64,000 nt of DNA from IMG/VR virus record IMGVR_UViG_3300023179_000046, positions 1-64,000 of that record; one strand, given 5' to 3'. Made by a program: the position numbers and the translations under genes. The notes beneath the pieces are model-generated. The model saw only the letters and a program-made list of their open reading frames with translations, did no database searches and was not told the origin of the DNA. This DNA is from a virus. Numbering within the stretch: position 1 is the first letter of the stretch; each line of letters begins with the position of its first letter. Below, one piece after another: positions 631 through 62,292 of this stretch.

Positions 631-637
631 TAAATTC

Positions 638-10020: not shown

Positions 10021-10024
10021 TAAA

Positions 10025-47199: not shown

Positions 47200-47269
47200 A
47201 AAAAAGCACCTAAATTCACATAAAATATTTAACAGAGACACCAAGTGTAGCACGCCCCCTGCCTTAAAC

Positions 47270-48292
47270 TTACATATTTTTGTAAATTTTTCTCAACCGG
47301 GCGACCATAGGACGAGTGACCTTCACCCAATCATATTCTCTATGAATTTGTAAAGCATTTTTGAACGCAATCTTAGACCACTCATCATGCATGGCGGGTG
47401 CAGCGTGCATATACTCCCGTAACTGTGTGTGATCGGGGCGCAACATCAGGCCGGGATGGATAGACTGCCAAGGTGACGTAGCCCAAGTAGACCCCAACGG
47501 GGCGGTAATATAATCCCCATACTCAGCCCACCCATCAGTACAAATCGTAGGAATGCCCATAGCCATAGCCTGCAAAGGATTAAACCCGAACCCCTCACCC
47601 CACGACGGATAAACAAAAACATCAGCCATAGCATACAAAGAAACCATCTCATACTCTGAATACATATCCGTAATGACCAAAACATTACTATGAAACAACT
47701 CAGGACTAGCCGCGACACCATTATAGGCTTTAGTTTGAACCGTAGAAGAATTAGAACCCTTGACAATTAATCTAAACCTATCATCACCACCATAAAGGTC
47801 AAGAAAAGTATCAACTACACGCTGACCGTCCTTGCGAACCGCAGGTTCCCCCACAAACAAAAACGTAAACGGCCTATCCTTACTAAAACCATCAAACTTC
47901 ACCCGCCTCGGACTAAAAATTTTAGAAATACCATGCGGATAAACACAAATATCCTTACCGCCAACAAACGGTTTAAAAATATCCTTATTCCACTGAGAAG
48001 GAGTCCAAATCTCATCACACACAGCAGCACCCTCAACCCAACCCGGCAACCACTGAGTAGACTCCCAAGCAGTAAACCCAATCTTAAAACTAGACTCACA
48101 ATAAAACCTATAATGACTAGGATGAGTGAACGCAATCTCAAAATCAGCCCTCACACTATCACCATCCTCAGGACGACGACACACCACATCAACACCCAAC
48201 TCCTTAAAAGCATTAAACGACTGCGCCGCAGCCGTCCCATACCCAAAAGTCGAATTACAATGCTCAAACGCGCCAGACAAATAAACTCTCAT
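47270..48292 (-). CDS. GT-B glycosyltransferase (family 4-like)
   Basis: FLFVGEPAVRKDG, ADVFVYPSWGEGFGFNPLQAMAMGIPTI. Confidence 0.9.
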   Translation of the reverse strand: MRVYLSGAFEHCNSTFGYGTAAAQSFNAFKELGVDVVCRRPEDGDSVRADFEIAFTHPSHYRFYCESSFKIGFTAWESTQWLPGWVEGAAVCDEIWTPSQWNKDIFKPFVGGKDICVYPHGISKIFSPRRVKFDGFSKDRPFTFLFVGEPAVRKDGQRVVDTFLDLYGGDDRFRLIVKGSNSSTVQTKAYNGVAASPELFHSNVLVITDMYSEYEMVSLYAMADVFVYPSWGEGFGFNPLQAMAMGIPTICTDGWAEYGDYITAPLGSTWATSPWQSIHPGLMLRPDHTQLREYMHAAPAMHDEWSKIAFKNALQIHREYDWVKVTRPMVARLRKIYKNM

Positions 48293-48297
48293 GCTAC

Positions 48298-48400
48298 ACT
48301 TTCTCTATAAGTACTTAATAAGAACAAAATATAATATATATAAATTATAGTATATATTACTATATAGTATAGTTAACTAAAGTTAACTATACTATACCAC
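48298..48400. promoter_or_regulatory. AT-rich divergent intergenic region with a perfect 16-bp inverted repeat
   Basis: TATAGTATAGTTAACT-AA-AGTTAACTATACTATA at 48363..48396. TAAGTACTTA at 48308..48317. TGGTATAGT on the minus strand at 48391..48399. Confidence 0.6.
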
Positions 48401-48448
48401 CCCCACCCTGAAAAATGATACACTAGGAATCTCCTTGAAAGGAACACC

Positions 48449-48673
48449 ATGTTAATCATTCCAATAAACAAACACACCCTAAGCCTCGTCACAGTACTAA
48501 ACGACGACGTAGAACCACCAATACCAGTACACGAAAAATTCCCCAACCTTGACGCCACATACCTCCTATGGGACAAAAAAGGCAACAACGTTTACACAAA
48601 AATAATCCACTGGACCGAACACGAACTCTTGAAAGAAGATGTCGGACACCCAATCTTCTTTAGAGAACAATAA
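48449..48673 (+). CDS. Hypothetical protein
   Basis: AAGGA RBS. First of four coupled ORFs. Confidence 0.65.
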   Translation: MLIIPINKHTLSLVTVLNDDVEPPIPVHEKFPNLDATYLLWDKKGNNVYTKIIHWTEHELLKEDVGHPIFFREQ

Positions 48674-48927
48674 TGCCCCAAAGCAACACACCAAAAAACC
48701 AAACCCTAACATACTACTTCGAATACACGCAACTAGTAGCCCAACAAAAAACAAAACCACTACTAGACTGCGCCAACAACCACCAAATGCTACACCCACA
48801 CTACGACACACAAAAAAACAAACTATACTTCCAATGCCTCACCTGCGACCAAAAAGTCCACCCCGGCCAAAACATCACACAAAAAATAAAACAAATAGTA
48901 AACCAACACCAAGAAAACAACCCATGA
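48673..48927 (+). CDS. Small zinc-binding protein
   Basis: CANNH...CLTC, TAATG coupling. Confidence 0.7.
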   Translation: MPQSNTPKNQTLTYYFEYTQLVAQQKTKPLLDCANNHQMLHPHYDTQKNKLYFQCLTCDQKVHPGQNITQKIKQIVNQHQENNP

Positions 48928-49124
48928 ACCAACAACAAACAGACACCCTCCTAGAAATACTCACAGGCATCTACATACAAACACTCCGCATATACGACCA
49001 ACTCGCCATCATCGGAGACAAACTAGGAGCAGACACCACACAACTAGCCAACCTACACGAACAAGGACACACCATCGGCCCCGACCCCGCCCTCACAATA
49101 GACCAAGACCAAGGACAAACATGA
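48924..49124 (+). CDS. Hypothetical protein (MNQQQTDTLLEILTGIYIQ...)
   Basis: ATGA overlap. 3' part of ORF 48639..49124. Confidence 0.65.
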   Translation: MNQQQTDTLLEILTGIYIQTLRIYDQLAIIGDKLGADTTQLANLHEQGHTIGPDPALTIDQDQGQT

Positions 49125-49321
49125 CACACTGGAACCAAAAAATAACAAACCTCCTATGGAAAGCCATAGACGACAACCACGAAACAATAAACAAACTAAG
49201 AATCAAAAAAGAAGAAGCACAACAAACAATCCAAACAATAAACCAAGAAATCGAAAACCTACACAACGACAACCACGAAATACAACAACAAATACTAAAA
49301 ATAGTCTCACCAAAAAACTAA
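49121..49321 (+). CDS. Small coiled-coil protein
   Basis: ATGA overlap, AAGGA RBS. Confidence 0.65.
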   Translation: MTHWNQKITNLLWKAIDDNHETINKLRIKKEEAQQTIQTINQEIENLHNDNHEIQQQILKIVSPKN

Positions 49322-49595
49322 ACCCAAAACGACAAAATGTTAACAAAAAAATTCAAACCCAAAACCACAAAATGTTAACAAATTTTTAAAATGTATGGAT
49401 ACGCCTTCGGCATAGCGGCGCGCGCTAAGGTAGTGCGCCCATACGGGCGGCGTGTCAAGCCTTATGGCGTGTGACATACGCCACATCGTGTTTGGTTGCA
49501 GAATGGTTGCAAACGCCCGTTTCGGGTCGCTGACTGTCGGACCCCTAGTGTAGTGTTCTACTTGTCAGAGAGAAACACTAATGAAAGGTTAGACA

Positions 49596-49778
49596 ATGAT
49601 CCACAAGTACCAAACTCGTCTCACGACCGCCGCTGCGTTGCGCGCCGGTCAAGTCCTTTACCACGGCGGGTCCATCTCGTCGGTGTCGTTCGATGGTCTT
49701 AGCGTCATCGTTCGCGCTTGCGGTAGGGAGTACACGTTCCAAGCGCGCGAGCGCGTTCGGATCTACCCTAACCTCTAG
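49596..49778 (+). CDS. Small protein, paralog of 50991..51188
   Basis: YQTRL...YHGG...RVRIYPNL. GAAAGG RBS. Confidence 0.8.
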   Translation: MIHKYQTRLTTAAALRAGQVLYHGGSISSVSFDGLSVIVRACGREYTFQARERVRIYPNL

Positions 49779-49860
49779 GTTGCAGTAGGGGTGCAACGTC
49801 ACCCCTACTGTCGGACCCCCGTGCTAGGCTCTCACTATCAACAACAACGAAAGGCAAGAA

Positions 49861-50124
49861 ATGACCATCAAGGGCGAACGTCACCTTATCAACTACCGGG
49901 GCAGCGTAATCTTCGCTGGCCGCTCGCCGTGGGATCTCAATCACCCTGAGAAGGCTCTAGTTCGGGTTCACATCAACGGCCAGTGCTACTCGGACGGCGT
50001 ATGGTCAGACACTCGCACCGATGAGGCGATGGACTACATCGACCGCATCCTAGGCACCTATGGCCCCGACCTTATGCCACAGGGCAGGCTTGCCCAGTGG
50101 ATTGTCGAACGCGCCAACGTCTGA
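49861..50124 (+). CDS. Hypothetical protein
   Basis: Own promoter at 49809 and GAAAGG RBS. Confidence 0.8.
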   Translation: MTIKGERHLINYRGSVIFAGRSPWDLNHPEKALVRVHINGQCYSDGVWSDTRTDEAMDYIDRILGTYGPDLMPQGRLAQWIVERANV

Positions 50125-50166
50125 CCCCTGCACTACCCCTGCAATATCAAACACTAACGAAAGGTA

Positions 50167-50406
50167 ATGCCCATGTATTCATCCGGTGTCAACGCTTATG
50201 GACACGCTGTGGAGTTGGAACACTACACGCGCTTTGTCTACTCGGAGGATGGTCTAGATGAGACCGTTGTGCCGTGCGGTTTCGTTGGAATGGTGGATGC
50301 ATCATTCGATGGGTCTAACGGTATTCTTGACTGCCCCGCCTGTGGCGATGAAATCGAAATCGAAGATGGTAAAGCCCATTGGGCCGATGCTTGGATTAGT
50401 GCCTAA
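50167..50406 (+). CDS. Acidic zinc-ribbon-like protein
   Basis: GAAAGG RBS, CPAC motif. Confidence 0.7.
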   Translation: MPMYSSGVNAYGHAVELEHYTRFVYSEDGLDETVVPCGFVGMVDASFDGSNGILDCPACGDEIEIEDGKAHWADAWISA

Positions 50407-50434
50407 TCATTCTCTAGAAAGAAAGAAGAAATAA

Positions 50435-50584
50435 ATGATGATGAAATACATTGACACATTCCCGCTTTGCGAGCATTGCGATATCGAAATGACCGAAGAA
50501 TGCAACTTCGGATATCGCCACTGGCAATGCAACTGCATTGTTTGTAAAGAATGTCTATGTGCATTCATCGCCCCAATGCATTAG
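50435..50584 (+). CDS. Cys-rich microprotein (49 aa)
   Basis: Hand-translated MMMKYIDTFPLCEHCDIEMTEECNFGYRHWQCNCIVCKECLCAFIAPMH, followed by a hairpin at 50584..50608. Confidence 0.55.
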   Translation: MMMKYIDTFPLCEHCDIEMTEECNFGYRHWQCNCIVCKECLCAFIAPMH

Positions 50585-50990
50585 GGGGGATATTCTAATA
50601 TTCCCCCCGCCATTGTTTGATAAAAGAATAGCGAATAAAAAGAATGCATAAAAGAATGCATTCTAAAATAAAAAAGAATGCGATTTGACATTTTTTTAGA
50701 ATGCGGGCAAGTACTTTGCCCGCGAAATTAATACTTGTCAATGCTTTAAGATAACGATTATGTAACGCTTTTGTAAATGCATTTATTTAATTCATGAATA
50801 ACAATTCAATAACAATTCAATAAACATATTCATGAATAATATGCATAACCATGCATAATATACACACATGGCATGTGATGTAGGTCACATCGGCTTAGGT
50901 TGCAGAACGGTTGCAAACAGCCCGTTTAGACAAACTACTGTCAGACCCCCATGCTAGACTGATACCATCAACAACAAGAAAGGCAAGACA

Positions 50991-51188
50991 ATGACTAAGA
51001 CCAACGTTCGTTACCAGACCCGCCTAGTGGCCGCCCGCAATTTGCAGGTCGGCACCGTGTGCTACCACGGGGGCGAGATTGTCTCGCGCGTGCCCAAGAA
51101 CGGCATCGGAATCGTTGTCACGTTCCGTGACGGTTCCGAGCGTTACTTTGCATACTCTGATCGGGTCAGAATCTACCCCAATCTCTGA
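50991..51188 (+). CDS. Small protein, paralog of 49596..49778
   Basis: Shared motifs and the same promoter architecture. Confidence 0.8.
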   Translation: MTKTNVRYQTRLVAARNLQVGTVCYHGGEIVSRVPKNGIGIVVTFRDGSERYFAYSDRVRIYPNL

Positions 51189-51240
51189 CCTGTCAGCCCC
51201 CCATGCTAGGCTCTATCAACAACAACGAAAGGTAATCAAA

Positions 51241-51351
51241 ATGTGGGAAATCATCTGTGAATTCGGATCGTGCAAGAACGTTGCAGAGGTCACCTACCCC
51301 GATGGTCGGGGAGATCAAATCCACTATTGCGGATTCCACGAACCGAATTAG
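51241..51351 (+). CDS. Zinc-finger microprotein (36 aa)
   Basis: GAAAGG RBS. CEFGSC...CGFH. Confidence 0.65.
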   Translation: MWEIICEFGSCKNVAEVTYPDGRGDQIHYCGFHEPN

Positions 51352-51380
51352 GTTCTCCCAACAACAAGAAAGGCAACACC

Positions 51381-51509
51381 ATGAATCAGGACATATGGGA
51401 CCAACTCAATGACCTGCACTGGCAGGATGAGTCGCTCTGGTGCCCCCAATGCTCCGAGTGCTCTCAGCCGTGGCCCTGCCTCACCCGTCAACTCCTAGAC
51501 CGTCTCTAA
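51381..51509 (+). CDS. H..CxxC..WPC microprotein (42 aa)
   Basis: GAAAGG RBS. Paralog-like to 53761..53907. Confidence 0.7.
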   Translation: MNQDIWDQLNDLHWQDESLWCPQCSECSQPWPCLTRQLLDRL

Positions 51510-51524
51510 AGAAAAGGTAATACA

Positions 51525-51710
51525 ATGATCGTTCACAAATCAATTTCGTACAATGAGTACTTCAATTCCGTTGGCCTTGACCAATGCATTCCCTGTAACG
51601 AAATGTACATTGTTCTGGAATGCATTGAATGCGGCGATACAATTGGCTGCTACTATTGTGAGGATGACTATTCTATTCCTCACGATTGTTTCGCATACAT
51701 TTCGGAATAA
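51525..51710 (+). CDS. Cys-rich small protein
   Basis: AAAGG RBS, three CxxC motifs. Confidence 0.65.
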   Translation: MIVHKSISYNEYFNSVGLDQCIPCNEMYIVLECIECGDTIGCYYCEDDYSIPHDCFAYISE

Positions 51711-51917
51711 ATAGAATACCCGCCGAAATTAGCGGGTAATTCTTTTCCAAAAAAGAATGCAATTTGACTAAATTTTAAAAGGCGGGCAAGTTCTTGCCCG
51801 CTTGACCTATCTCTGTCAAGCCTTACGTTGCATACATTACATAGGCTTTTTGGCTTGCCATTGTCGGCCCCACCGTGTAGAGTTTGGCTACCAACCCAAC
51901 GAGCGAGAGGCCCGCCC

Positions 51918-52067
51918 ATGTTTGACGACCGCACCCCCGCGCTGGAAGAAATTGCCGAAATGTGGCTCTACGATTGGGCCGTCCTCTGGGCCGCGAACGA
52001 GTATTTCCCTGAGGATTGGGAGGACCGCGACCCGGCTGAATGGCTGGACGACGCGCCAGAATTCTAA
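51918..52067 (+). CDS. Acidic Trp-rich microprotein (49 aa), paralog of 53178..53354
   Basis: GAGAGG RBS. FPEDWEDRDPAEWLDDAP. Confidence 0.75.
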   Translation: MFDDRTPALEEIAEMWLYDWAVLWAANEYFPEDWEDRDPAEWLDDAPEF

Positions 52068-52280
52068 AACCCTTGCCCCTTCGGGGGCAAGCGGGTAAGT
52101 ACTTGCCCGCGCAGAGCGCGCTGTCAAGTACTTACGATAACGATTAAGTAACGCATTTATATTCACATTTATTGCATATTATTCATGGTTGCAGAATGGT
52201 AGCAAGATCAGTTTGGGTCTTGTGAACTGTCGGACCCCCATGCTACGCTGGCTCTATCAACAACGACGAAAGGTGATCGA

Positions 52281-52505
52281 ATGATTCCCCTCCCGCCCAT
52301 TCCCAACGATGCAATTAACGAGGCTACGGCAGAAGTATTCGCCATCACAAACTCGCTCACCCTAGCCGCACGGGTAGGACACGATGCACTAAACGCTGCC
52401 CTGCCTTACATTGTTATTGCGACGCTGCGCCACTTTGCTGACTGGAACCCCGATGGTGGACTTGACTTGCTGGCCGACGAGATTGAGGGGGAACTAAACA
52501 AATGA
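52281..52505 (+). CDS. Hypothetical protein
   Basis: Promoter at 52228 and GAAAGG RBS. Confidence 0.75.
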   Translation: MIPLPPIPNDAINEATAEVFAITNSLTLAARVGHDALNAALPYIVIATLRHFADWNPDGGLDLLADEIEGELNK

Positions 52506-52654
52506 CCACCCTACGCTCATTCTGCGTTTGCCTTCACGAATCCTACATGCGATTCCAGTATAATGAAGAAACCGGGCTTATTCATTGCCCCAAATGCAAT
52601 TACCCGTCGTGGTACAGCCTGTACCCCGAAGAACTGTCTCAATCAGAATACTAG
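52502..52654 (+). CDS. Zinc-ribbon microprotein (50 aa)
   Basis: ATGA overlap. MTTLRSFCVC...HCPKC. Confidence 0.6.
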   Translation: MTTLRSFCVCLHESYMRFQYNEETGLIHCPKCNYPSWYSLYPEELSQSEY

Positions 52655-52670
52655 ACAACGGAGAAATAAA

Positions 52671-52859
52671 ATGACCTACACCATCATTAGCAACAAGGCA
52701 CAATGCGGAGAATGCGGATTCATTATCGAATCCCGCCACCGCCACGACTTCGCCTCCTGTAAATGTGGTAACATCTTCGTTGACGGAGGAAAAGAATACC
52801 TCCGCAGAGGATTCAAGAACGCAGACACATTCATCGAATTGTCAGAAACAGAGGGATAA
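52671..52859 (+). CDS. Conserved phage zinc-binding protein
   Basis: GGAG RBS. NKAQCGECGFIIESRHRHDFASCKCGNIFVDGG. Confidence 0.8.
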   Translation: MTYTIISNKAQCGECGFIIESRHRHDFASCKCGNIFVDGGKEYLRRGFKNADTFIELSETEG

Positions 52860-52865
52860 TAACTA

Positions 52866-53003
52866 ATGATGCGCTCCCGCCGAAATAGGGCACTATTGAA
52901 AAGCGCAGCCTGCCCGTGGTATTGCTGCTGCGAATTGGAACGCAACCGAACATATCGCACCCGCGAAAAAAACAATTGGCGTAAATGGCGAAAAGAATAC
53001 TAG
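52866..53003 (+). CDS. Basic Cys-containing microprotein (45 aa)
   Basis: Hand-translated MMRSRRNRALLKSAACPWYCCCELERNRTYRTREKNNWRKWRKEY. Ends just before a boundary element. Confidence 0.5.
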   Translation: MMRSRRNRALLKSAACPWYCCCELERNRTYRTREKNNWRKWRKEY

Positions 53004-53177
53004 AGAGCCGCTTGACCCTTCGGGGTCAAGCGGGCAAGTATTTCCCCGCGCGAAATACTTTGTCAACCTCTTACGATGTGGCTTACGTCACACAGAAATA
53101 ACACTGTTTTGAGTTGCATCTGTCAGTCCCGCCCTGTATCGTTCTACCTACCAACCCACCGAGCGAGAGGCACGCCC

Positions 53178-53354
53178 ATGCTGCACCCCACCACCGACCA
53201 GTTCCTGCCCGAAGAATGGGAGGACCGCGACCCCGCCGAGTGGCTGGACGACGCGCCCGATGACGAGCCTCCCATGCCCGAGGACGACGAGGACTGGGGG
53301 GACCATTGGGAGGACGCCGCCGCCGAATATTTCTTATTCGGAGGTGACTACTAA
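53178..53354 (+). CDS. Highly acidic microprotein (58 aa)
   Basis: Leader nearly identical to that of 51918. LPEEWEDRDPAEWLDDAP. Confidence 0.75.
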   Translation: MLHPTTDQFLPEEWEDRDPAEWLDDAPDDEPPMPEDDEDWGDHWEDAAAEYFLFGGDY

Positions 53355-53532
53355 AACCCTTGCCCCTTCGGGGGCAAGCGGGTAAGTACTTGCCCACGGC
53401 AAGTACTTAGTCAACACCTTACGATGTGACATACGACACACTAAAATAACGCTGTTTGGGGTTCCATATGTCAGACCCATCCGGTAAAGTTCTACCTGTC
53501 AGCAAGAAACCCCAACCGAAAGGAAGTGCCCC

Positions 53533-53691
53533 GTGGGAATCTCATCCCCCACCGTCATCGTCTCCACCGAAATCTGGTCCACCAAGCACGGCAAGGTCAC
53601 CAAGGCCGTCGTTCGTACCCCCAACGGCACCTTCCTTGGAGCCACCAACCAGACCGCCGCGATTGCCCCGGTTGTAGTTGGTCGTCGGTAA
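53533..53691 (+). CDS. Microprotein (52 aa), paralog of 59947..60111
   Basis: GTG start after AAGGA. STEIWSTKHGKVTKAVVRTPNGTFLGATNQTAAIAP. Confidence 0.8.
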   Translation: MGISSPTVIVSTEIWSTKHGKVTKAVVRTPNGTFLGATNQTAAIAPVVVGRR

Positions 53692-53760
53692 ATAGATCGA
53701 ACAATGGCCCCCCGCATTGTTCGGGGGGCATTGTTGTTACTAAAAGAATAGGATAAAGAA

Positions 53761-53907
53761 ATGTCATCAGTCTCCGACACGCTTGACGAACTTTTCGAAA
53801 TGCATGGCCCCGACCTTAGCAATTCGTGGATGCCCCCGTACCTCTGCAACGAGTGCGGAAAGTCATGGCCGTGCCCGACGCGCTGGCTGCTGAACCATCT
53901 AGCGTAA
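53761..53907 (+). CDS. H..CxxC..WPC microprotein (48 aa)
   Basis: Hand-translated MSSVSDTLDELFEMHG...LCNECGKSWPCPTRWLLNHLA. Confidence 0.65.
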   Translation: MSSVSDTLDELFEMHGPDLSNSWMPPYLCNECGKSWPCPTRWLLNHLA

Positions 53908-54038
53908 CGATGCTTGACCCTTCGGGGTCAAGCGGGCAAGTACTTGCCCGCCAAAGGCGGGCTGTCAAGTACTTACGATGTGACATACGACACACGATTA
54001 TGCTTCCATTTGTCGGCCCGCTGTGGTAGATTGCTCTC

Positions 54039-54751
54039 ATGACACAGACACTCACCCGCAGCAAAGACCGCAAGGTCGCCAACCTAGTTTCCCCTAATGG
54101 CAAGTCGGCAGTAATTGCTAATTCATTCGGTATTCCCGCCGGTAAGCAATTCTCTTGCCCCTCTGCCACCGATTTCTGTTCCACCATTTGCTACGCTGGC
54201 AAACTGGAGAAGATTTACACTAACGTCAAGTCTGCGCTAATTCGCAATTGGGAAGCGTTGCAGGATAAGTCCACCGAAGAATTGTATGACATTCTTTCGG
54301 GAATGATCGCAGAATTCAATTCGGAATGTGACAAGCGCGGAGCCGATAAACTATTCCGTATCCATTGGGACGGTGATTTCTTCGCCCCGCATTACACCGC
54401 CGCATGGTCTAAGGTAATTGCAAACAACCCACAGATTCAATTCTGGGTCTATACTCGCGTTGCCACCGCTGCCCTATTCTTGCACGCGCGCAAGTATTCC
54501 AACCTTGGATTGTATTTCTCTGCCGACCCTGACAATATTGAGGCTGCCCGCCTATTAGAGTCTAAAGGCATCAATATTGCCTATGTCGATAAGTCATTCG
54601 CTCAGGGTAAAGAACAATTCCCCAACGCTACCCGCTGCCCGAGAACAATAAGGCACTCCCGCTAATCACCGATAAGGGATCAGCCTGTGCCCGTTGCGGA
54701 TTGTGTATCAATGGCCGCAAGTCCGTGCTATTCTCCACTAGTAAGAAGTGA
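54039..54751 (+). CDS. Mycobacteriophage gp88-like Fe-S/radical-SAM-related protein, with apparent frameshift near 54640
   Basis: SCPSATDFCSTICYA, FRIHWDGDFF, FWVYTR. A second frame continues ENNKALPLITDKGSACARCGLC to TGA at 54751. Leaderless start 6 nt after the -10. Confidence 0.8.
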
Positions 54752-54855
54752 GCATCCTAGACGTAATTGTGTTTCTATTCGTCTATCTCCCCGCAATGAT
54801 TGGCATGTTCATAGTAATACCATTTCTAATTGCATTCATCTTGCATAAAGAATAG
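54748..54855 (+). CDS. Single-pass membrane microprotein (35 aa)
   Basis: GTGA overlap with the corrected gp88 stop. Hydrophobic. Confidence 0.5.
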   Translation: MSILDVIVFLFVYLPAMIGMFIVIPFLIAFILHKE

Positions 54856-54894
54856 CGGTCATCTTGCATAAAGAATAGCGGTCATCTTGCATAA
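54836..54894. repeat. Tandem 23-bp repeat (about 2.5 copies)
   Basis: TCATCTTGCATAAAGAATAGCGG twice, plus TCATCTTGCATAA. Confidence 0.85.
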
Positions 54895-55120
54895 TAGTTA
54901 ACGGTGGGGCGGCTAATGTCGCCCCACCTAAGTACTTGACAGCCCGCCTGTCGGCGGGCAAGTACTTGCCCGCAGGGCAAGCACTTGTCAATACCTTACG
55001 ATGTGATCTTTGACACGTTTTTTAGGTTGCAGAATGGTTGCAGGTGGTAGGGCACTGTCAGTCGGCTGTGCTAATCTTCTCTCAGTCGAAAGGTTCGGCT
55101 ACACAAGAACAGGAGTCACC

Positions 55121-55378
55121 ATGTGGCAGTTTGACGCAGCGTGCGACACGCAAGACACCGAAATCTTCTTCTCTGAACTCCGCAGCAAGGTTGTCAAGGC
55201 TAAGGCAATCTGCGCCACATGCCCCGTTCGTAGCCAATGCCTCTCATTCGCTATTGCCGAAGATATCGACACCGGAATCTTCGGAGGCCTCACCCCCGCC
55301 GAGCGTAAAGAATTGTTGCGCCCTAAGAACAACGAAGGCCCCCGCGCCCAATGGGAAATCGACCTACTTGACTCGTAA
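55121..55378 (+). CDS. whiB: WhiB-family transcription factor
   Basis: WQFDAAC...FF...AKAICATCPVRSQCL...GIFGGLTPAER. AGGAG RBS. Confidence 0.92.
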   Translation: MWQFDAACDTQDTEIFFSELRSKVVKAKAICATCPVRSQCLSFAIAEDIDTGIFGGLTPAERKELLRPKNNEGPRAQWEIDLLDS

Positions 55379-55413
55379 TCCTGCAACATCAAACAACTAA
55401 TAAGGAGAAACAA

Positions 55414-55749
55414 ATGGGAATTATTCAGCACGACGCCGTTCTCGTCACATTCAGCGACTACGCAGAATCGCGGGGCACATTCGAACTTGAGAAATTGCGC
55501 GCTCTCCTGCCCGTAGAGGTCGCAAGCCTGCTCTCTGTCACCGATGCCGTATCCAACGGATACCGTACCCTATTCTTTGCCCCCGATGGGTCTAAGGAGG
55601 GATGGGAAACTTCTAACGATGGCGACGACGCCCGTGACATTATTCGCCAATACTGCGAAGAAACGTTGCCCTATTGCGAAGTTATTGTAGTTTCCTATGG
55701 AGAACTGGGAAACAGAATTTGGGATTACCCCGACGGATATGTAAACTAA
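55414..55749 (+). CDS. Hypothetical phage protein
   Basis: [20 protein letters not shown] motif. Confidence 0.8.
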
Positions 55750-55934
55750 ACAATGGCACGATAATGCCGAAATTGGGCGAACGCGCGCCGGTGGTTGTGT
55801 TGTATCTGCGCGGTCTGCTGGGTGTGCCGACTTTGCCGTGATGCGGCCTTTCGGACCCCCGGATCTTTGGAACGCCAATAGCCTGCAAACCCCCTGGTCT
55901 TTGGAACGTAAGTTGGTAGAGTTCAACCACGGCG

Positions 55935-56228
55935 ATCCTTCGCGGTCCGGCCGCGTGGTCGCCAACATGGAAGCCTCGCTCGGCGTTCCCACCGCAACGA
56001 GCGTGCGCGGCGTGCCAGCGAAGTTGCTCATTGACAACCGAATCGTCATCAACAACCACCTCGCGCGCGCACGGCCGACAGTTGAGGCCAAGGAGGCGGC
56101 GTGGGCAGCAGCAGTCGAGAGTGACGAGTTGTCCAACGCGATCCTCGGCGCCACCGTGGGGGGCTTCAACCAGCCCGATCAGCGTGACCTGCTTCGTCCG
56201 TTCGTGGACAAGTACGTCGCCGCCCTGT
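55935..56228 (+). pseudogene. Fused fragments resembling actinobacterial kgd/sucA (55935..~56072) and pepN (~56063..56228)
   Basis: [39 protein letters not shown] is Kgd-like. [12 protein letters not shown]...[12 protein letters not shown]...LLRPFVDKY is like the PepN C-terminal region. High GC. Identification is by recall, not search. Confidence 0.65.
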
Positions 56229-56266
56229 CACGGCGGAGGTCACGGGTTCGAATCCCGTTAGAGTCG
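56220..56266 (+). pseudogene. 3' part of tRNA-Asp(GTC)
   Basis: CCGCC-CTGTCAC-GGCGG anticodon arm, ACGGG-TTCGAAT-CCCGT T-arm, TAGAGTC-G. No 5' acceptor strand or D-arm upstream. Confidence 0.75.
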
Positions 56267-56368
56267 CTTGACACCCGCCCTTCGGGCGGGTAAGTACTTG
56301 CCCGCCAACGGCGGGCTGTCAAGTACTTTACGTTGTGACATTCACCACACATTTTTTGCCGTTTATCC

Positions 56369-56397
56369 TTGACTCTAGGATAGCCGTACTGTAAAGT
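56369..56397 (+). promoter_or_regulatory. Canonical sigma-70-type promoter (leaderless)
   Basis: TTGACT-N17-TAAAGT with ATG at 56405. A similar TTGACC-N17-TAAGGT lies at 59494..59522. Confidence 0.65.
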
Positions 56398-56404
56398 ACA
56401 TACC

Positions 56405-56560
56405 ATGAAGAACAAGCGCAGAGAGCAGAAGCAGAAAGAATACGTCGAACACGTCCAGAATCTCCGCAGAGGTTCTACCACTGACCGTCACAAGTCCGTC
56501 AAGGATTACCGCCGTAAGAATAAGTCAAACACTCTAGGATGGGAGAAAGAATATGCGTGA
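56405..56560 (+). CDS. Highly basic microprotein (51 aa)
   Basis: MKNKRREQKQKEYVEHVQNLRRGSTTDRHKSVKDYRRKNKSNTLGWEKEYA. Overlaps the next ATG. Confidence 0.7.
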   Translation: MKNKRREQKQKEYVEHVQNLRRGSTTDRHKSVKDYRRKNKSNTLGWEKEYA

Positions 56561-56951
56561 CATTATTGTGTTCCACCCCGGCACAGGTACTATCCTGCCC
56601 CTGAACGATGAGGTTTACCTTATCGACTATGCCTCCCTTAGCGAAGAAGAACAGGGAATGGTTGACTACGGCAACATCGACCTTGACGAAATCGAAACCT
56701 ACCGTTTGTCCAACCACCTTGTCGGCTATCAGTACTTTGGCGACGAGATTGACGACTCCGATGACTACCTTGTTGGCATCCCGACTACCTCCATCCCGCT
56801 TGACGTTGTGGTTGACCCTAACGAGGACTTTGGCGAGTTGCTTGACGACGACGAAGATGAGGACTTTGGCGATTCGGAAGCGTGGACGGAAGAAGAAATA
56901 GAAGATCTCAAGAAAGTATTAGCAGAATGGACGCCCCCGGCACCCGAATGA
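56553..56951 (+). CDS. Very acidic hypothetical protein
   Basis: 132 aa, D/E-rich, GGAG RBS. Confidence 0.75.
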   Translation: MRDIIVFHPGTGTILPLNDEVYLIDYASLSEEEQGMVDYGNIDLDEIETYRLSNHLVGYQYFGDEIDDSDDYLVGIPTTSIPLDVVVDPNEDFGELLDDDEDEDFGDSEAWTEEEIEDLKKVLAEWTPPAPE

Positions 56952-57067
56952 GCGCATACGCTGTACTTGCAATCATAGTTTTAACTTTCGCTCCCGCCCT
57001 CACATACTACCTAGGCTATAAGCAGGGTAGATCAGACCTAAACTATGAATGGGGTAAAGATGCCTAA
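56948..57067 (+). CDS. Membrane microprotein
   Basis: ATGA overlap. MSAYAVLAIIVLTFAPALTYYLGY. Confidence 0.6.
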   Translation: MSAYAVLAIIVLTFAPALTYYLGYKQGRSDLNYEWGKDA

Positions 57068-57221
57068 TCTAGAATACATTGGCTCGCTAGCCCACTACCA
57101 CGGGCCATGCGAAATCGTAGACGAAGCCTACACACGACAGGGCCGCTACTCCATTGTTCTCCCCAACGGCAAAATGCTAATCAACGTCCGCCCCCAATCC
57201 ATTCTCATAATCCAAGACTAA
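57060..57221 (+). CDS. Microprotein (53 aa)
   Basis: Hand-translated MPNLEYIGSLAHYHGPCEIV...NVRPQSILIIQD. Stops just before a boundary element. Confidence 0.6.
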   Translation: MPNLEYIGSLAHYHGPCEIVDEAYTRQGRYSIVLPNGKMLINVRPQSILIIQD

Positions 57222-57384
57222 ACTGCTTGACCCTTCGGGGTCAAGCGGGTAAGTACTTGCCCGCAAGGCAAGCACTTGTCAACCCCTTACGATGTGACAT
57301 TACGCACACCAAAAAAGGTTACAATTCTGGCCTCCTTGCCGTAAAGTTTGTCCTGTCAGAAAGCCCCCCACATAAGGAGTCACA

Positions 57385-57903
57385 GTGCCCAACTGGTGCA
57401 GCAACAGTATCCGAGTCAGCCCCAAGGGCTACAACTTGGCTATCTCTTACTCATTCATGCTCGCGCTAATGTCATACTACCCATTCTTCACACTCTCCGC
57501 TGTCAAGGGCAAGGCACCCAACGACACCGACTCCTATGACTGGAATGTCAAGAACTATGGCACCAAGTGGGACATTGACCCGGTGGCATGGAAGATTGAG
57601 ATTGACGATGTAGACTATTGGTACACCCTATGGGTTACCTTTGACACCGCATGGTCCCCGGCCACACCCGTCGTAGAACAACTGTCCATCGAATATCCCC
57701 AATTGGTATTCACCCACGCCTACTGCGAAATGGGAATGGACTACCTAGGCGTAGACCAATGGCAAGCGGGGGAAAAGACTGTAATTGAGGACAGCGCACC
57801 ATCTGAATATGATTGGGACGACGAAGATCCCTACTCTATGCCCGAAACCCCCTCAGACCTTGCTGAGTTTCTAGAGGCAAACCGCATCCACCTAGGAGGA
57901 TAA
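57385..57903 (+). CDS. DUF1281/YubB-like ferredoxin-fold protein
   Basis: MPNWCSN...WNVKNYGTKWD...FDTAWSP...YCEMG. Confidence 0.8.
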   Translation: MPNWCSNSIRVSPKGYNLAISYSFMLALMSYYPFFTLSAVKGKAPNDTDSYDWNVKNYGTKWDIDPVAWKIEIDDVDYWYTLWVTFDTAWSPATPVVEQLSIEYPQLVFTHAYCEMGMDYLGVDQWQAGEKTVIEDSAPSEYDWDDEDPYSMPETPSDLAEFLEANRIHLGG

Positions 57904-57906
57904 CCA

Positions 57907-58119
57907 ATGGTATTCCAAGAAGCCTACGGAGAACTAACTAAAGAACAATGGAGACTCTACAAGAAACACTCCATTACTCCCGCCGAACACTACATGCTAG
58001 AATCATACGCAAACTATGACGCCCAACAAATAATTCAAATAATCAAAAACTCCATAAACAAAGCAGGCAAACTCTCCCCCTCATTCCTTATGAGCGCAAT
58101 TGCAGAAATAAACAACTAA
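57907..58119 (+). CDS. Hypothetical protein
   Basis: AGGAGG RBS. Confidence 0.75.
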   Translation: MVFQEAYGELTKEQWRLYKKHSITPAEHYMLESYANYDAQQIIQIIKNSINKAGKLSPSFLMSAIAEINN

Positions 58120-58309
58120 CAAGCCCTTGCCCCTTCGGGGGCAAGCGGGTAAGTACTTGCCCGCGCGGAGCGCGGCTGTCAAGTACTTTACGTTGTGACT
58201 TACGACACACTAAAATAACTACAAATATCCTAGAAAAACCCTTCCGTTTGTCAGACTGATGATGTAGTCTATGACTACAAAGTTAGCCACTACCCACTAG
58301 GAGATTCAC

Positions 58310-59320
58310 ATGCATGGTCTAGAAACCAATGGCACAGAGGTCGCTTTCGCCCTCCGTGGTGCCCCCGCGTGGCACAACCTCGCAAACAAGACTTTCGGTG
58401 CCGATGAGACGGTCACTACCTCGCAGATGCTTGACGCTGCCATGCTTTCCAACTGGAACATCCAACTGCACGCCGTTTCGGAGTACGCGCCCGAGTCATT
58501 CCGTTTCTCGTCCGACTCGTACATGGTCACCCGTACCAACCCGTTCGACGGTGGCACTGACGTTCTCGCCACCGTTGGCGAGCGTTACACTGTCGTTCAG
58601 AACGAGAGCCTGTTTGAGTTTGCCGATCACATTCTGGACGGCGGCGCATCGTGGGAGTCGGCTGGCTCCATCAAGGGCGGTCGTCGTGTGTTCGGTTCGC
58701 TCGTCATCCCGCGCGAGATTGTTCTGGACCCCAACGGTGCCAACGACAAGACTGTCACCTACCTGCTCGTCAACACGTCGCACGACGGATCAACCGCTGT
58801 GCAGGCTTCCATCACCCCCGTTCGCGTGGTCTGCCAGAACACGCTCAACCTTGCGCTCCACAAGGTCAAGCAGACCTACAAGATCCGTCACACTCAGACC
58901 GTGGGCGGTAAGGTTGCTGCGGCTCAGTCTGCGCTTGGCCTGACCTACACCTACATGGACGCTTTCAGTGCAGAGGTTACTGCCCTGTTTGAGCAGTCCA
59001 TCACCGATCAGACTTTCGACTCCATCGTCAAGGCTATCTACCCTCAGCCTGAGAAGGACGCTAAGGGTGCCCTGACCAAGTGGACGAACAAGGTCGATCT
59101 CGTTCAGGACTTGTACCGTACCTCCCCCACTAACGCCAACATCAAGGGCACCGCGTGGGGCGCGCTCAACGCTCTCACTGAGCGCCTTGACTGGTTCCGC
59201 AACGGTCGCGGCGATGACTCTAAGGAGAACGTGGCCGCTGCCGCTACTGGCTTCGACCCCGTGACCAACACGGAGAAGAACCGCATCCTGTCCGTTGTCA
59301 AGGAACTTTCTTTCGCCTAG
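58310..59320 (+). CDS. DUF932 (TIGR03299-like) phage/plasmid protein
   Basis: PAWHNL, YTVVQN, ESAGSIKGGR, NTSHDGS, TPVRVVCQNTL, IRHT, GTAWGALNA. Confidence 0.88.
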   Translation: MHGLETNGTEVAFALRGAPAWHNLANKTFGADETVTTSQMLDAAMLSNWNIQLHAVSEYAPESFRFSSDSYMVTRTNPFDGGTDVLATVGERYTVVQNESLFEFADHILDGGASWESAGSIKGGRRVFGSLVIPREIVLDPNGANDKTVTYLLVNTSHDGSTAVQASITPVRVVCQNTLNLALHKVKQTYKIRHTQTVGGKVAAAQSALGLTYTYMDAFSAEVTALFEQSITDQTFDSIVKAIYPQPEKDAKGALTKWTNKVDLVQDLYRTSPTNANIKGTAWGALNALTERLDWFRNGRGDDSKENVAAAATGFDPVTNTEKNRILSVVKELSFA

Positions 59321-59337
59321 AGCGAACATGCAGCAGC

Positions 59338-59360
59338 ACCCCCCGGCTCACGCCGGGGGG
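59338..59360 (+). terminator. Terminator hairpin
   Basis: CCCCCCGGC-TCAC-GCCGGGGGG after the DUF932 stop. Confidence 0.7.
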
Positions 59361-59555
59361 AGTTGTTGTCAAATTGTTACCTAAAAGTACTTGACAAAAT
59401 TTTTTTGCGGGCAAGTACTTGACCGCGCGAAGCGCGGCTGTCAAGTACTTTACGGTGTGTATTACGACACACATTTTTTAGCACAAAAATGTATTGACCT
59501 TGGGGTCGGGGGATGCTAAGGTTTACCTACAACGACAGAGAGGGAGGTACAGGAT

Positions 59556-59753
59556 ATGGTTGTTACTATTCAGGCACCGTCATCTGCCGCACAGAAGCGT
59601 GCTTTTAGTCAGTGTATGATTATGGGTTTGGAAGCGACTGTTTTGGAGGACAATTGTATTGATTTGGTTGTTCAGCAGTTGTGGAAGGCTAAGCATGTTG
59701 CTGGTATGGTTGATGGTGAGATTGTTGCGGTTCATGACCGGGTTAAGATTTAG
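59556..59753 (+). CDS. Hypothetical protein
   Basis: GGAGG RBS, promoter at 59494. Confidence 0.7.
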   Translation: MVVTIQAPSSAAQKRAFSQCMIMGLEATVLEDNCIDLVVQQLWKAKHVAGMVDGEIVAVHDRVKI

Positions 59754-59761
59754 GAGTTTGT

Positions 59762-59938
59762 ATGGCTGACAGTAATGATGCGCGTGCGATTCAGATTTTT
59801 ACTCAGGCTTGGAATAGTGGTTATGATGACGCTATTGCTGAGGTTATTGATTATTTATCTTCATTGTATGATATGACTAATAGTTTTGCGGAAAAGCAGT
59901 TGATTGATTCTATTATTGCCAATTTTGAGTCTAACTAA
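59762..59938 (+). CDS. Microprotein (58 aa)
   Basis: AGGAG RBS. MADSNDARAIQIFTQAWNSGYDDAI... Confidence 0.65.
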   Translation: MADSNDARAIQIFTQAWNSGYDDAIAEVIDYLSSLYDMTNSFAEKQLIDSIIANFESN

Positions 59939-59946
59939 GGAGTATT

Positions 59947-60111
59947 ATGTCTAACATTGTTTCTACCCCCGCCGTTGTTGTTTCTACTGAGGTTTGGTCT
60001 ACCAAGCACGGTAAGGTGACGAAGGCTGTTGTTCGCACCCCGTCCGGTACGTTCCTTGGTGCTACTAATCAGACTGCGGCGATTGCGCCGATGATTGTAG
60101 GTCGCCGCTAG
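59947..60111 (+). CDS. Microprotein (54 aa), paralog of 53533..53691
   Basis: AAGGAG RBS. STEVWSTKHGKVTKAVVRTPSGTFLGATNQTAAIAP. Confidence 0.8.
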   Translation: MSNIVSTPAVVVSTEVWSTKHGKVTKAVVRTPSGTFLGATNQTAAIAPMIVGRR

Positions 60112-60156
60112 ATTTAAGTCATTAGGGGGAGGCTGAGCCTCCCCCTTTTGGCGTGC

Positions 60157-60238
60157 GCGGGTGTGGCGGAATTGGCACACGCAGCAAACTTAAAATTTGC
60201 CACCGAAAGGTATACGGGTTCAACTCCCGTCACCCGCA
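60157..60238 (+). tRNA. tRNA-Leu (anticodon TAA)
   Basis: GCGGGTG/CACCCGC acceptor, GCAAA-CTTAAAA-TTTGC anticodon arm, long variable arm ACC-GAAA-GGT, ACGGG-TTCAACT-CCCGT T-arm, A discriminator, no encoded CCA. Confidence 0.9.
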
Positions 60239-60262
60239 CGCTAGTTTAGTTTAAGGAGAGAT

Positions 60263-60478
60263 ATGCCTAAATGTTTTGATTGTAATAATGTTACAATGTT
60301 TGAATTTTCTACTACACAATGGGATACAGTTTACTTTGACCCCGAGGGATTTATCGTTGACACCAAGAGGCTCTATAAGGTAGACTCATTCCTACCGCCC
60401 ACCTGTGGGCGGTGTGAAAGTACGAATATTGATGCCACATTCCTTGATGCTGCACTATTGGAGGTAGAAGATGAATGA
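60263..60478 (+). CDS. Zinc-ribbon protein
   Basis: CFDC...CGRC, AAGGAG RBS. Confidence 0.75.
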   Translation: MPKCFDCNNVTMFEFSTTQWDTVYFDPEGFIVDTKRLYKVDSFLPPTCGRCESTNIDATFLDAALLEVEDE

Positions 60479-60815
60479 TAGGGACTTCCTAAGGAGTTTA
60501 GGTTTTGTTGTTGGTGAGCGTGGTCGTTTCTCTAAGGAGATGGTGGCTGCCCTAGCATCTCGCAATTCTAAGACTGAGACATCTACCAAGTTTGACAAGA
60601 TTGATGAGGCGGGACTTCCTGAGAAACTAAAGCGAACACCTGTCAGGGAAGCCGAACAACTATATGGCTATGACAAGTATGGTCACAAGATTGCTTTCGT
60701 ACTTTGTAATTCATGTAATCAGCATATGATTTGGTGTACCTGCAAGGCAGGTATTCTCGCCCCGTCCCATATTATTCGTAGCGAAAACCCCCTAGTCACT
60801 GTCCGTGCGGCATGA
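60471..60815 (+). CDS. Protein with Lsr2-like DNA-binding domain and Cys cluster
   Basis: RDFLRSLGFVVGERGRFSKEMVAA resembles the Lsr2 RGR domain. CNSC..CTC. Confidence 0.6.
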   Translation: MNDRDFLRSLGFVVGERGRFSKEMVAALASRNSKTETSTKFDKIDEAGLPEKLKRTPVREAEQLYGYDKYGHKIAFVLCNSCNQHMIWCTCKAGILAPSHIIRSENPLVTVRAA

Positions 60816-60848
60816 TACTATTAGACACCATCGACACTAGGAGGCAGT

Positions 60849-61181
60849 ATGGCTAGGACCACGGAAGATAAGGTAGCCAAGTATCTGATTGACGGATGCG
60901 CGGATTCTCGTCTCAACGAGGTTGCGTTGGCTCACACTATGGGGAGGCAGGCGTATGACGTACAGGCGCGGTTCTGGAACACTCTGGTTTCTTACATTTA
61001 CTTTCATGCTCACAATTATGAGCATGGTCTATTTGACGAAGGTACATATGAGATTGCTAGATTGTCTAAGAAGATCAAGGACTTAGCGTTTGCTGATGAG
61101 CGTAAGTATTCCTCTGATCCCGTTCATGAACGGTATGGAGATTTTGAGTTGCAAGATGGTCAATTGCGTCAAGGGTTTTAA
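60849..61181 (+). CDS. Hypothetical protein
   Basis: AGGAGG RBS, promoter motif at 60800. Confidence 0.8.
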   Translation: MARTTEDKVAKYLIDGCADSRLNEVALAHTMGRQAYDVQARFWNTLVSYIYFHAHNYEHGLFDEGTYEIARLSKKIKDLAFADERKYSSDPVHERYGDFELQDGQLRQGF

Positions 61182-61182
61182 T

Positions 61183-61308
61183 ATGAGTTTAATTTTAGAT
61201 TATATTTCTGTGCCTTGTGATGCTTGCGGGGCGGAAGTTGGAGAAATTTGTCGTCCCCATTGTATAGGTATAGTAAAATACTATGAGGTAGATACGCTAT
61301 CAGACTAA
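61183..61308 (+). CDS. Zinc-finger microprotein (41 aa)
   Basis: VPCDACGAEVGEICRPHC. Confidence 0.6.
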   Translation: MSLILDYISVPCDACGAEVGEICRPHCIGIVKYYEVDTLSD

Positions 61309-61341
61309 TCAGTCAAGTGTTATAAAGAATTACATCTACCT

Positions 61342-61371
61342 AGGGCGGGAGTTTTTAACTCCCGCCCTTTT
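61342..61371 (+). terminator. Intrinsic terminator
   Basis: AGGGCGGGAGTT-TTT-AACTCCCGCCCT followed by a T run. Confidence 0.75.
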
Positions 61372-62292
61372 AGTTTGCCTAAGTACTTGACACGGCCCGC
61401 TGGCGCGGGCAAGTACTTGACCTCACATATTTTTTTTGTCTAGACCTTTACGATGGGTTGTTTTTAGCACATTTTTGGCATGTTTTTATAGTTATGCAAG
61501 TAAGCATACTCTCATGTTTTTCTATTTTTATAGACATTACGATGATTTGATTTTGGCACTGTTATGAGGGTACAAAAAAAACTCATGTTATGGGATTCCA
61601 TAGCATGAGTTTGCATGCGTTTACGTATGCAAGCACGCCAAAGGCGTGTATATACTTTGTTTTAGCAAGAGAATATAGTTTGTATTAAGGTTTAATGGTT
61701 AACTCTTAATATGGGGCGGGTATATCTAGGGTTATCCCCCTTGTATATCTATAGGGATATACATATCATGCATCCCGCCCAATATATGCATAAACTACGG
61801 ATTTCGTTGTCTACCCCTAGAGCAAAACCATAATATCCGTTGTCTAACCCCCTTAAAACTACGGATTCCGTTGTTTAGGCTGCCTAGAACAACAATTTAT
61901 ACCCTAAAATGCTTACCAAAATAGGGTTAAAACGAGGCAGAATTGCTTAAAAAGCAACAAAAACCACCCAAAACCACCCAAAAATGCTCAAAAAACAACA
62001 AAAATGGCTAAACAATAAAATTTACTGTCTAAAGGGCATATCACAGGAAAATTTACGGAAAATAGGGTCAAATTCAGGAAAAAAAAGGGTTTACGGGGGA
62101 TATGTAACTAAGTTAATTACATAAATTTCTCTTTAACATTCGTATGTGTGTGTTTTTTTGGTTTGATGTGGCGTTTTATGCATGTGTTTGCATATTTATG
62201 CGTTTGTTTGCATACGTTTGTAGTCATTATTCATTTGTATTCGTTTGTTTGCATTGGTTTGGCACGCCTTTGGCGTGCATTGTATTCGTTTA

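Follow-up and report, generated by a model that had tools for sequence, protein, structure and literature searches.

A 56-bp dyad repeated between the small early operons of an actinobacterial siphovirus: a possible terminator-promoter unit that may double as a recombination hotspot

What is the function of a 56-bp dyad that recurs at short intervals between the small early genes of an actinophage? The question is raised by positions 49400 to 61450 of an IMG/VR virus record (IMGVR_UViG_3300023179_000046), a linear metagenome contig of 102,989 bp with a completeness estimate of 82%, of which the first 64 kb constitute the window analyzed here. In the open reading frame (ORF) map, all genes between 48.4 and 61.4 kb are on the plus strand and those in the remainder of the record are on the minus strand. 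Products of the plus-strand block include, according to Pfam and PHROGs, WhiB, GP88, DUF932, Api92-like domain, and Lsr2-like proteins. The phage is a siphovirus, as seen from its tape measure protein and a portal resembling those of Streptomyces phages. We give a probability of about 0.5 to the explanation that the dyad belongs to a terminator/insulator-promoter unit, comparable to the PeSL units of T4-type phages, which doubles as a hotspot of homologous recombination.

The element is defined by a 20-nt core, GCGGGYAAGTACTTGCCCGC, that was found with up to 3 mismatches at 11 places (0.00 expected from 100 shuffles); a 12th copy contains the core with a 1-nt insertion (50703-50723). The center boxes, AAGTACTT, start at positions 50709, 51788 (as AAGTTCTT), 52097, 53036 (as AAGTATTT), 53384, 53938, 54960, 56292, 57251, 58151, 59413, and 61411. 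The box is present 21 times in the entire record, namely, 19 times within 50.7 to 61.4 kb, once at 48309, and once at 78971. Extra boxes are located 28 to 30 bp from the center box in 7 copies and 17 bp from it in copies 53036 and 53384, and a box variant, AAGCACTT, lies 19 bp from the center in two copies. The arms TTGAC and GTCAA are separated from the core by spacers of 10 to 12 nt, and TTACG is found downstream in 11 of the 12 copies. Neighboring copies are 309 to 1,998 bp apart and none lies inside a credible gene; copy 56292 overlaps just a pseudo-ORF composed of host gene fragments. The original prediction, made from the letters of the window, of 12 intergenic copies with these arms and TTACG, 0.3 to 2 kb apart and confined to about 12 kb, was thus confirmed, the confinement now extending to the full record. 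The block and the copies are as follows; signed numbers give the distance of additional boxes from the center box, and z refers to folding of the RNA.

48350..61450, plus strand: early block of about 13 micro-operons with 1 to 7 small genes each (ORF map, Pfam, PHROGs, and homologues in the terminal repeat of cluster BE1 phages)
49400..49458, plus strand: e00, a decayed 13th copy recognized from the sequence; AAGGTAGT replaces the box, and the right arm TGTCAA and the downstream TGTGA box are retained
50685..50741, plus strand: e01, arms and core with a 1-nt insertion, AT-rich 12-nt spacers, separate GC hairpin upstream at 50575-50605 (z = -4.8)
51764..51819, plus strand: e02, box variant AAGTTCTT, AT-rich left spacer (z = -4.9)
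52073..52133, plus strand: e03, UUCG hairpin of the TTGCCC type, core, inner GC hairpin, outer box at +29 (z = -6.5)
53012..53066, plus strand: e04, UUCG hairpin of the TTGACC type, center AAGTATTT, box AAATACTT at +17, changes compensatory with respect to e05
53360..53415, plus strand: e05, UUCG hairpin of the TTGCCC type, core, second box at +17 (z = -6.4)
53914..53974, plus strand: e06, UUCG hairpin, perfect core, inner hairpin, outer box at +29
54930..54991, plus strand: e07, outer box at -30, perfect core, AAGCACTT at +19, separate terminator-like hairpin upstream
56268..56328, plus strand: e08, UUCG hairpin built with the left arm of the core, outer box at +29, located after a patchwork of host fragments
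57227..57282, plus strand: e09, UUCG hairpin of the TTGACC type, core, AAGCACTT at +19
58127..58188, plus strand: e10, UUCG hairpin of the TTGCCC type, core, inner hairpin, outer box at +30
59385..59450, plus strand: e11, three boxes (-28, 0, and +30), right arm of the core reading TTGACC, canonical terminator upstream at 59339-59360
61381..61442, plus strand: e12, the last copy, box at -30, degenerate right half, located after a terminator at 61342-61368 (z = -1.95)

The decayed copy e00 stands before the first GC-rich cassette, and downstream of it the segment 49464-49545 is homologous to 50868-50949.

The dyad is the constant part of a unit of 100 to 150 bp, which consists, in this order, of a stop codon, a UUCG-capped hairpin or a separate terminator, the dyad, TTACG, a TGTGA-N6-ACACA box, and a promoter. 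Its copies sit at the 3' end of plus-strand micro-operons: every copy comes after an operon, and there is no plus-strand gene beyond the last copy, e12 (61411). The distance from the stop codon is 34 to 36 bp for 7 copies and 82 to 128 bp for 5, the latter with a separate GC hairpin in between; a GC-rich hairpin directly after the gene is a hallmark of canonical intrinsic terminators that is present here. On the 3' side, TTACG and the TGTGA-N6-ACACA box are followed by an A/T run, often by GGTTGCA repeats, and by a promoter-like site (TGTCRG-N10-TAnnnT or TTGACN-N17-TAnnnT), which is located 65 to 130 bp downstream of the dyad center in 10 of the 12 copies and 226 bp downstream for e01, with none after e12. 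Every cassette has its own promoter. It had been proposed that a unit reads element, transcription-factor box, promoter, 1 to 7 ORFs, and terminator; this order is corrected here, as the element follows each operon, and e12 has no plus-strand gene after it. The similarity between copies usually spans about -35 to +60 and extends in some pairs to the promoter.

As plus-strand RNA, 11 of the 12 copies fold far better than shuffled controls (z of -4.6 to -6.5), and three patterns can be distinguished. (i) An outer stem, TTGACA/TGTCAA, encloses a core hairpin in e01 and e02. (ii) A cUUCGg-capped hairpin formed by the left arm and the "spacer" precedes a long hairpin between center box and outer box in e03 to e06, e09, and e10. 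(iii) Inner hairpins are enclosed by an outer stem in e07, e08, and e11. One stem pair of the UUCG hairpin varies in a compensatory way, with A-U in 3 of its 6 copies and C-G in the remaining 3. In the sister copies e04 and e05, the pairing between the center box and the box at +17 was kept through two double changes, from C-G to U-A and from G-C to C-G. These folds modify two earlier claims. The spacers, described as conserved in length and variable in sequence, do have a length of 10 to 12 nt, but the left one is not free sequence, as it closes the UUCG-capped hairpin with the left arm in 6 copies, and the right one is in most cases taken up by an inner GC hairpin or a second box. Likewise, the extra boxes at 28 to 30 bp exist in 7 copies, but the idea that they mark three helical turns was not supported, since box spacings of 17, 19, and 28 to 30 bp track the size of the enclosed loop or hairpin, which argues against a fixed protein-binding phase.

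According to the explanation that we favor, the dyad would be the constant hairpin module of a 100- to 150-bp punctuation unit between some 13 small early operons. Directly behind the stop codon, the plus-strand transcript would fold into 2 or 3 stable hairpins, one of them UUCG capped and another with a stem provided by the self-complementary word AAGUACUU, which would pair either within the core or, as center box, with an outer box. These hairpins, we infer, would stop or attenuate read-through and protect the 3' ends, and each operon would be driven solely by its own promoter 65 to 130 bp downstream. As a palindrome, the core would oppose transcription from both directions. At the DNA level, the 20 to 50 identical bases would offer preferred crossover points for ordinary homologous recombination with the RecA and junction nucleases of the phage, a process that would duplicate, replace, and reorder cassettes and keep the copies alike.

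PeSL units of the T4-type phages phi1 and RB49 were shown to terminate and recombine (Arbiol et al. 2010, PMC2839356). Shared features are (i) a repeated stable GC stem-loop that forms a unit with an early host-type promoter between small ORFan genes, (ii) the use of the stem-loop as terminator or attenuator, which is predicted in our case, and (iii) recombination at the units, within which the breakpoints fall, by which cassettes are shuffled, deleted, and duplicated. There are also differences. The element studied here has an unrelated sequence and belongs to a siphovirus of Actinobacteria, whereas PeSL units have a sigma-70 consensus promoter and belong to T4-type myoviruses; neither such a promoter nor a relation to T4-type phages was seen here. 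Its promoter is of the TGTCRG-N10-TAnnnT or TTGACN-N17-TAnnnT type and lies 65 to 130 bp away, whereas the PeSL stem-loop usually overlaps or abuts the promoter, and it forms 2 or 3 hairpins that include a strictly conserved 20-bp palindrome and extra AAGTACTT boxes. The likening of the array to T4-type early stem-loop modules in the original prediction was therefore apt; its suggestion of a new kind of system was not, as the sequence of the element is new but the design is already known from T4-type phages.

Evidence for recombination comes from the copies themselves. Their left halves are of the TTGCCC hairpin type (e03, e05, and e10), the TTGACC hairpin type (e04, e06, and e09), or the box type (e07, e11, and e12), and their right halves fall into the groups e03, e10, and e11; e06 and e08; e07 and e09; and e04 and e05. 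No single tree can accommodate the way in which left and right halves are combined, and similarity switches at the core. Furthermore, the homology between cassettes C and E begins with the first base of the upstream core (51782/53030), ends with the last base of the downstream core (52111/53398), and goes no further. The paralogues F1/L3 and B3/F2 are gene-sized duplicates that are not bounded by dyads. RecA, a Cas4-like nuclease, a RuvC-like protein, and two proteins with Endonuclease VII domains are encoded by the phage, and with RecA and junction nucleases present, ordinary homologous recombination would suffice for the exchange of cassettes. The claim that cassettes were exchanged and duplicated at the elements is thus supported by the mosaic halves, by the core-to-core duplication of C and E, and by the replacements in the BE1 phages described below, which break at analogous palindromes; the mechanism is what we infer from the sequences.

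No other record was found to contain the exact element. The exact 20-mer had no match in viral contigs and only single unrelated matches in metagenome and genome contigs; a two-box pattern search of viral contigs returned only single matches at chance level and tandem repeats; and a megablast comparison with a phage collection returned a tRNA fragment only. The design is found more widely. Relatives identified via DUF932 (54 to 64% identity) and ribonucleotide reductase (up to 81%) share this array design and promoter type, each with its own homogenized repeated hairpins or palindromes and without AAGTACTT; the ribonucleotide reductase search retrieved more than 599 contigs, which are not all close kin, as the gene is a conserved one. 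The closest cultured phages are those of Streptomyces cluster BE1 (Stanwilliamsviridae), with a portal identity of about 54%. BE1 phages carry a direct terminal repeat of about 11 kb (PMC5764925), and homologues of the DUF932 and Lsr2-like genes are located inside this repeat, at 2 places per record. In NootNoot (1-10200), 13 of 14 gaps contain a hairpin (UNCG capped in about 9) and, behind it, a palindrome of the TGTC-N7-GACA type or only the CCGGACA half of that palindrome; further downstream are an A run, GGGTTGCG, CGGACA direct repeats, and a TGTCC-N-TAGACT promoter. The terminal-repeat units of NootNoot and Mildred21 resemble the present ones in the homologous block with its DUF932 and Lsr2-like genes, in the small genes of one orientation opposite to that of their neighbors, in the order of stop codon, mostly UNCG-capped hairpin, palindrome, A/T run, GGTTGC word, and TGTC-type promoter, and in cassette replacements that break at the palindrome. 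They differ in the palindrome, which is the GC-rich TGTC-N7-GACA and not GCGGGYAAGTACTTGCCCGC, and in the lack of AAGTACTT boxes. As to the expectation that breakpoints in relatives coincide with the elements, 2 of the 3 cassette replacements between NootNoot and Mildred21 start or end in the palindrome, but one gene-sized indel between NootNoot and Persimmon lies off it. No paper describing these BE1 intergenic units was found, PMC5764925 covering the repeat only.

A number of observations weigh against the favored explanation. (i) The terminator scan detected no U-tract after the stem behind any dyad on the plus strand, which is the main weakness of the termination reading; it called only separate hairpins (51717, 53707, 59339, and 61342) and no dyad. 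Mycobacterial RNA polymerase reportedly requires a U-tract in vitro, a finding said to be that of Czyz et al. from 2014. (ii) A second terminator looks redundant, because five copies already have a separate upstream hairpin, three of which were called terminator-like. (iii) The core shows no covariation, with 5 G.U pairs and 5 broken cells, and template switching can yield compensatory changes in quasi-palindromes without any RNA function. (iv) The AT-rich copies e01 and e02 retain only the blocks TTGAC, core, and GTCAA at fixed spacing, a pattern that looks like sequence-specific reading. (v) A change in the right arm of the core breaks the hairpin in e11 and e12 yet creates the arm word CTTGAC, and in the NootNoot palindrome TGTC and GACA are kept but the intervening complementarity is not.

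Points (iv) and (v) also speak for an array of operators or roadblocks, an alternative that we consider possible, if only tentatively. A dimeric or multimeric protein of phage or host would bind the YAAGTACTTR boxes and the TTGAC/GTCAA half-sites and thus insulate or shut off the early block; in a variant of this idea, RNA polymerase could be halted by the bound protein right behind the UUCG hairpin, so that termination would need no U-tract. Stoperators or the repressor sites of phiC31 would be the nearest parallels. Exact words are indeed kept beyond structural need, with the three blocks of e01 and e02 set apart by 10- to 12-nt spacers, and the fact that each relative has its own palindrome is expected of lineage-specific pairs of protein and site. 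An additional box without a hairpin partner has the following location.

48308..48317, no strand assigned: lone 10-bp palindrome TAAGTACTTA, situated in the divergent gap that heads the block and immediately upstream of the ribosome-binding site belonging to the minus-strand gene starting at 48292

This lone box, however, is not significant and could be due to chance once all intergenic DNA is counted. Other data are also unfavorable to an operator. Neither HTH_3 nor ParB_N domains were found in the record, HTH_17 (2957-3118) and sigma-70 region 4 gave only sub-threshold matches elsewhere in it, and the array proteins yielded only WhiB and the Lsr2-like family among regulator-type matches, the small ORFans receiving no assignment. 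No paper linking AAGTACTT to an actinobacterial regulator was found in the literature. The box spacings do not correspond to one helical phase, the boxes of e04 are mutated yet mutually complementary, and the site is 65 to 130 bp (226 bp for e01) upstream of the promoter element and not over the promoter. The stoperators of cluster A mycobacteriophages are likewise many copies of a short site in actinophage gene gaps that are thought to stop transcription when bound by protein (PMC9283540, PMC6550527), but they are asymmetric, oriented sites of 13 to 14 bp distributed over the whole genome and read by a known immunity repressor, whereas the present palindrome is confined to 12 kb; no repressor or integrase was found in this record. 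A more specific proposal, which we regard as doubtful, is that a dedicated protein reads the palindromes (AAGTACTT with TTGAC/GTCAA here and TGTC-N7-GACA in BE1) just downstream of the UNCG-capped hairpin at each operon boundary and stalls RNA polymerase there. This would be protein-assisted, U-tract-free termination that insulates the early block, each lineage having changed the specificity of protein and site.

Alternatively, the hairpins may be sites of RNA processing or regulation, either cut, e.g., by host RNase III, or bound by a phage RNA-binding protein, which would result in separate stabilized mRNAs or a fold switch. The intergenic R sites of T7, which are RNase III sites, provide a comparison. 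Near-perfect stems of 9 to 12 bp with an internal loop or inner hairpin between groups of cistrons, two mutually exclusive folds (the core with itself or the center box with the outer box), and a conserved stem sequence are compatible with such a role. We nevertheless judge it unlikely: no Rfam family matches the element, and processing of a long precursor is not needed because each operon has its own promoter.

The homology to the BE1 terminal repeat has consequences of its own. As the homologues of the DUF932 and Lsr2-like genes sit in the approximately 11-kb direct terminal repeat of BE1 phages, the block at 48350-61450 is probably a direct terminal repeat that collapsed in the assembly, with the contig being a permuted assembly and the physical genome ends probably lying near 48.3 kb and 61.5 to 62.3 kb. 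The block has many small early genes in several operons and is homologous to the repeat of cultured relatives. A similar arrangement exists in the host-takeover module, located in the terminal redundancy, of Bacillus phage SPO1, which is said to have 12 operons (a number attributed to Stewart et al., 1998). Like the present block, that module comprises about 12 to 13 kb, many small early genes mostly of unknown function, a dozen short operons with their own promoters, and a long terminal repeat (PMC10531801); it has no sequence relation to the block, its host belongs to the Firmicutes, there is no report of a conserved palindrome family between its operons, and a terminal repeat is only predicted in our case. 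The dyads might be a signal of the terminal repeat for pausing or stopping DNA entry, for packaging, or for replication, in the way proposed for the repeats that T5 carries in its first-step-transfer region. Although the BE1 repeat, to which the block is homologous, is likely the first DNA to enter the cell, we hold such a function to be very unlikely, as twelve evenly spread copies at operon ends misfit a signal that acts at a single point, and the genome ends are here deduced from homology.

A dedicated integron- or att-like site, at which a recombinase recognizes the dyad and moves cassettes as units, is the least probable of all, since its support (a dyad of about 56 bp whose inner and outer blocks flank a central TA, exchange points at the core, and the roughly 18% of the genome that is absent from the record) is offset by the lack of matches to Phage_integrase (PF00589), Resolvase (PF00239), and Y1_Tnp (PF01797) in the 103-kb record, in a search in which PF00589 controls matched, by cassettes with promoters of their own, by a palindromic center without polarity, by the fact that twelve direct recombinase targets would delete the block, by the gene-sized duplications F1/L3 and B3/F2, and by the NootNoot-Persimmon indel. 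The observation that no recombinase is visible in the window was correct and extends to tyrosine, serine, and Y1 enzymes in the entire record; the conceptual link to integron cassettes made alongside it was not sustained. Integron attC sites share with the dyads imperfect palindromes at cassette boundaries and the gain, loss, and reordering of cassettes, but there is no integrase here, the cassettes have promoters, RYYYAAC/GTTRRRY cores are lacking, and exchange is explained by homology; the dyad ends read CTTGAC and TGTCAAG, which are not attC core sites.

Further candidates were rejected. (i) An N4-like hairpin promoter for a giant virion RNA polymerase was discarded because the 3,290-amino-acid protein is the tape measure. 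(ii) A sigma-70 promoter formed by arm and core, TTGACC-N17-TAAGTA, is without the final T of TAnnnT. (iii) Agreement with the NrdR box is limited to 6 of 10 core positions. (iv) For a ParB/parS or KorB-like system, ParB_N was missing, and (v) for repetitive extragenic palindromes (REP/BIME) with a RAYT, a Y1 transposase (PF01797). (vi) An att site of an integrase or large serine recombinase was dismissed for want of PF00589 or PF00239 matches.

Several features of the block and its surroundings deserve mention. Between 49400 and 61450 the GC content is a mosaic: most cassettes have 52 to 55% GC, as opposed to 40% in the remainder of the phage, the final genes in cassettes A and B (50430-50900 and 51520-51780) have 35 to 36%, and cassette L (59500-61450) has 45%. 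At the left, the plus strand of 47300-49400, which covers genes Z1 to Z3 and the end of the adjoining minus-strand gene, is extremely rich in A/C and poor in G/T (AT skew of 0.36), and a perfect 15-bp inverted repeat, TATAGTATAGTTAAC-TAAA-GTTAACTATACTATA, is located at 48363-48396 in the AT-rich divergent gap that forms the left edge of the block. At the right, beyond the last dyad, an AT-rich (35% GC) noncoding stretch of 840 bp (61450-62290) contains ACTACGGATTYCGTTGT twice, at 61794 and 61858, as well as small GC hairpins at 61633 and 62262; it could be the site of a genome end, an origin, or a convergent terminator zone.

The segment 55750-56262 is a GC-rich patchwork built from host gene fragments. 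One piece has 95% amino acid identity to the C terminus of aminopeptidase N and a second about 90% identity to 2-oxoglutarate decarboxylase from metagenome-assembled genomes of Candidatus Nanopelagicales; a truncated tRNA follows at 56205-56258. These matches and the truncated tRNA point to a Nanopelagicales-like host and to host DNA captured at the end of a cassette. The GP88-family gene (54039-54665) ends early, with the conserved Cys-rich C-terminal part running on in another frame to 54750; this frameshift near 54630-54750 may be genuine or may stem from an error in assembly. The class II ribonucleotide reductase (44398-47253, minus strand) has 951 amino acids, whereas most relatives align over about 640; the long form is also present in one relative (L161) and suggests an insertion such as an intein. 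Minus-strand genes at 84.6 to 92.8 and 94.6 to 101.3 kb of the record encode a GMP reductase/IMPDH, a glycosyltransferase, an NAD epimerase, a PfkB kinase, a thiamine pyrophosphate-dependent E1-like enzyme, a zinc alcohol dehydrogenase, RecA, the Cas4-like nuclease, MazG, and the DNA polymerase III alpha subunit. Modification of DNA or of the cell surface is a possible role of the sugar genes.

According to this analysis, a very large and mostly uncultured family of actinophages, including the cultured BE1 phages, builds its early, probably terminal-repeat, block from micro-operons separated by homogenized hairpin/palindrome-promoter units, at which cassettes change places. If the favored explanation holds, the PeSL principle would thereby extend from T4-type phages to actinophages with another type of promoter, and unit-based cassette exchange would account for the turnover of ORFan early genes. 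The culturable phages NootNoot and Mildred21 offer a testable model for the stop of transcription at U-tract-less hairpins in Actinobacteria, and the element is a compact candidate insulator part for actinobacterial genetics.

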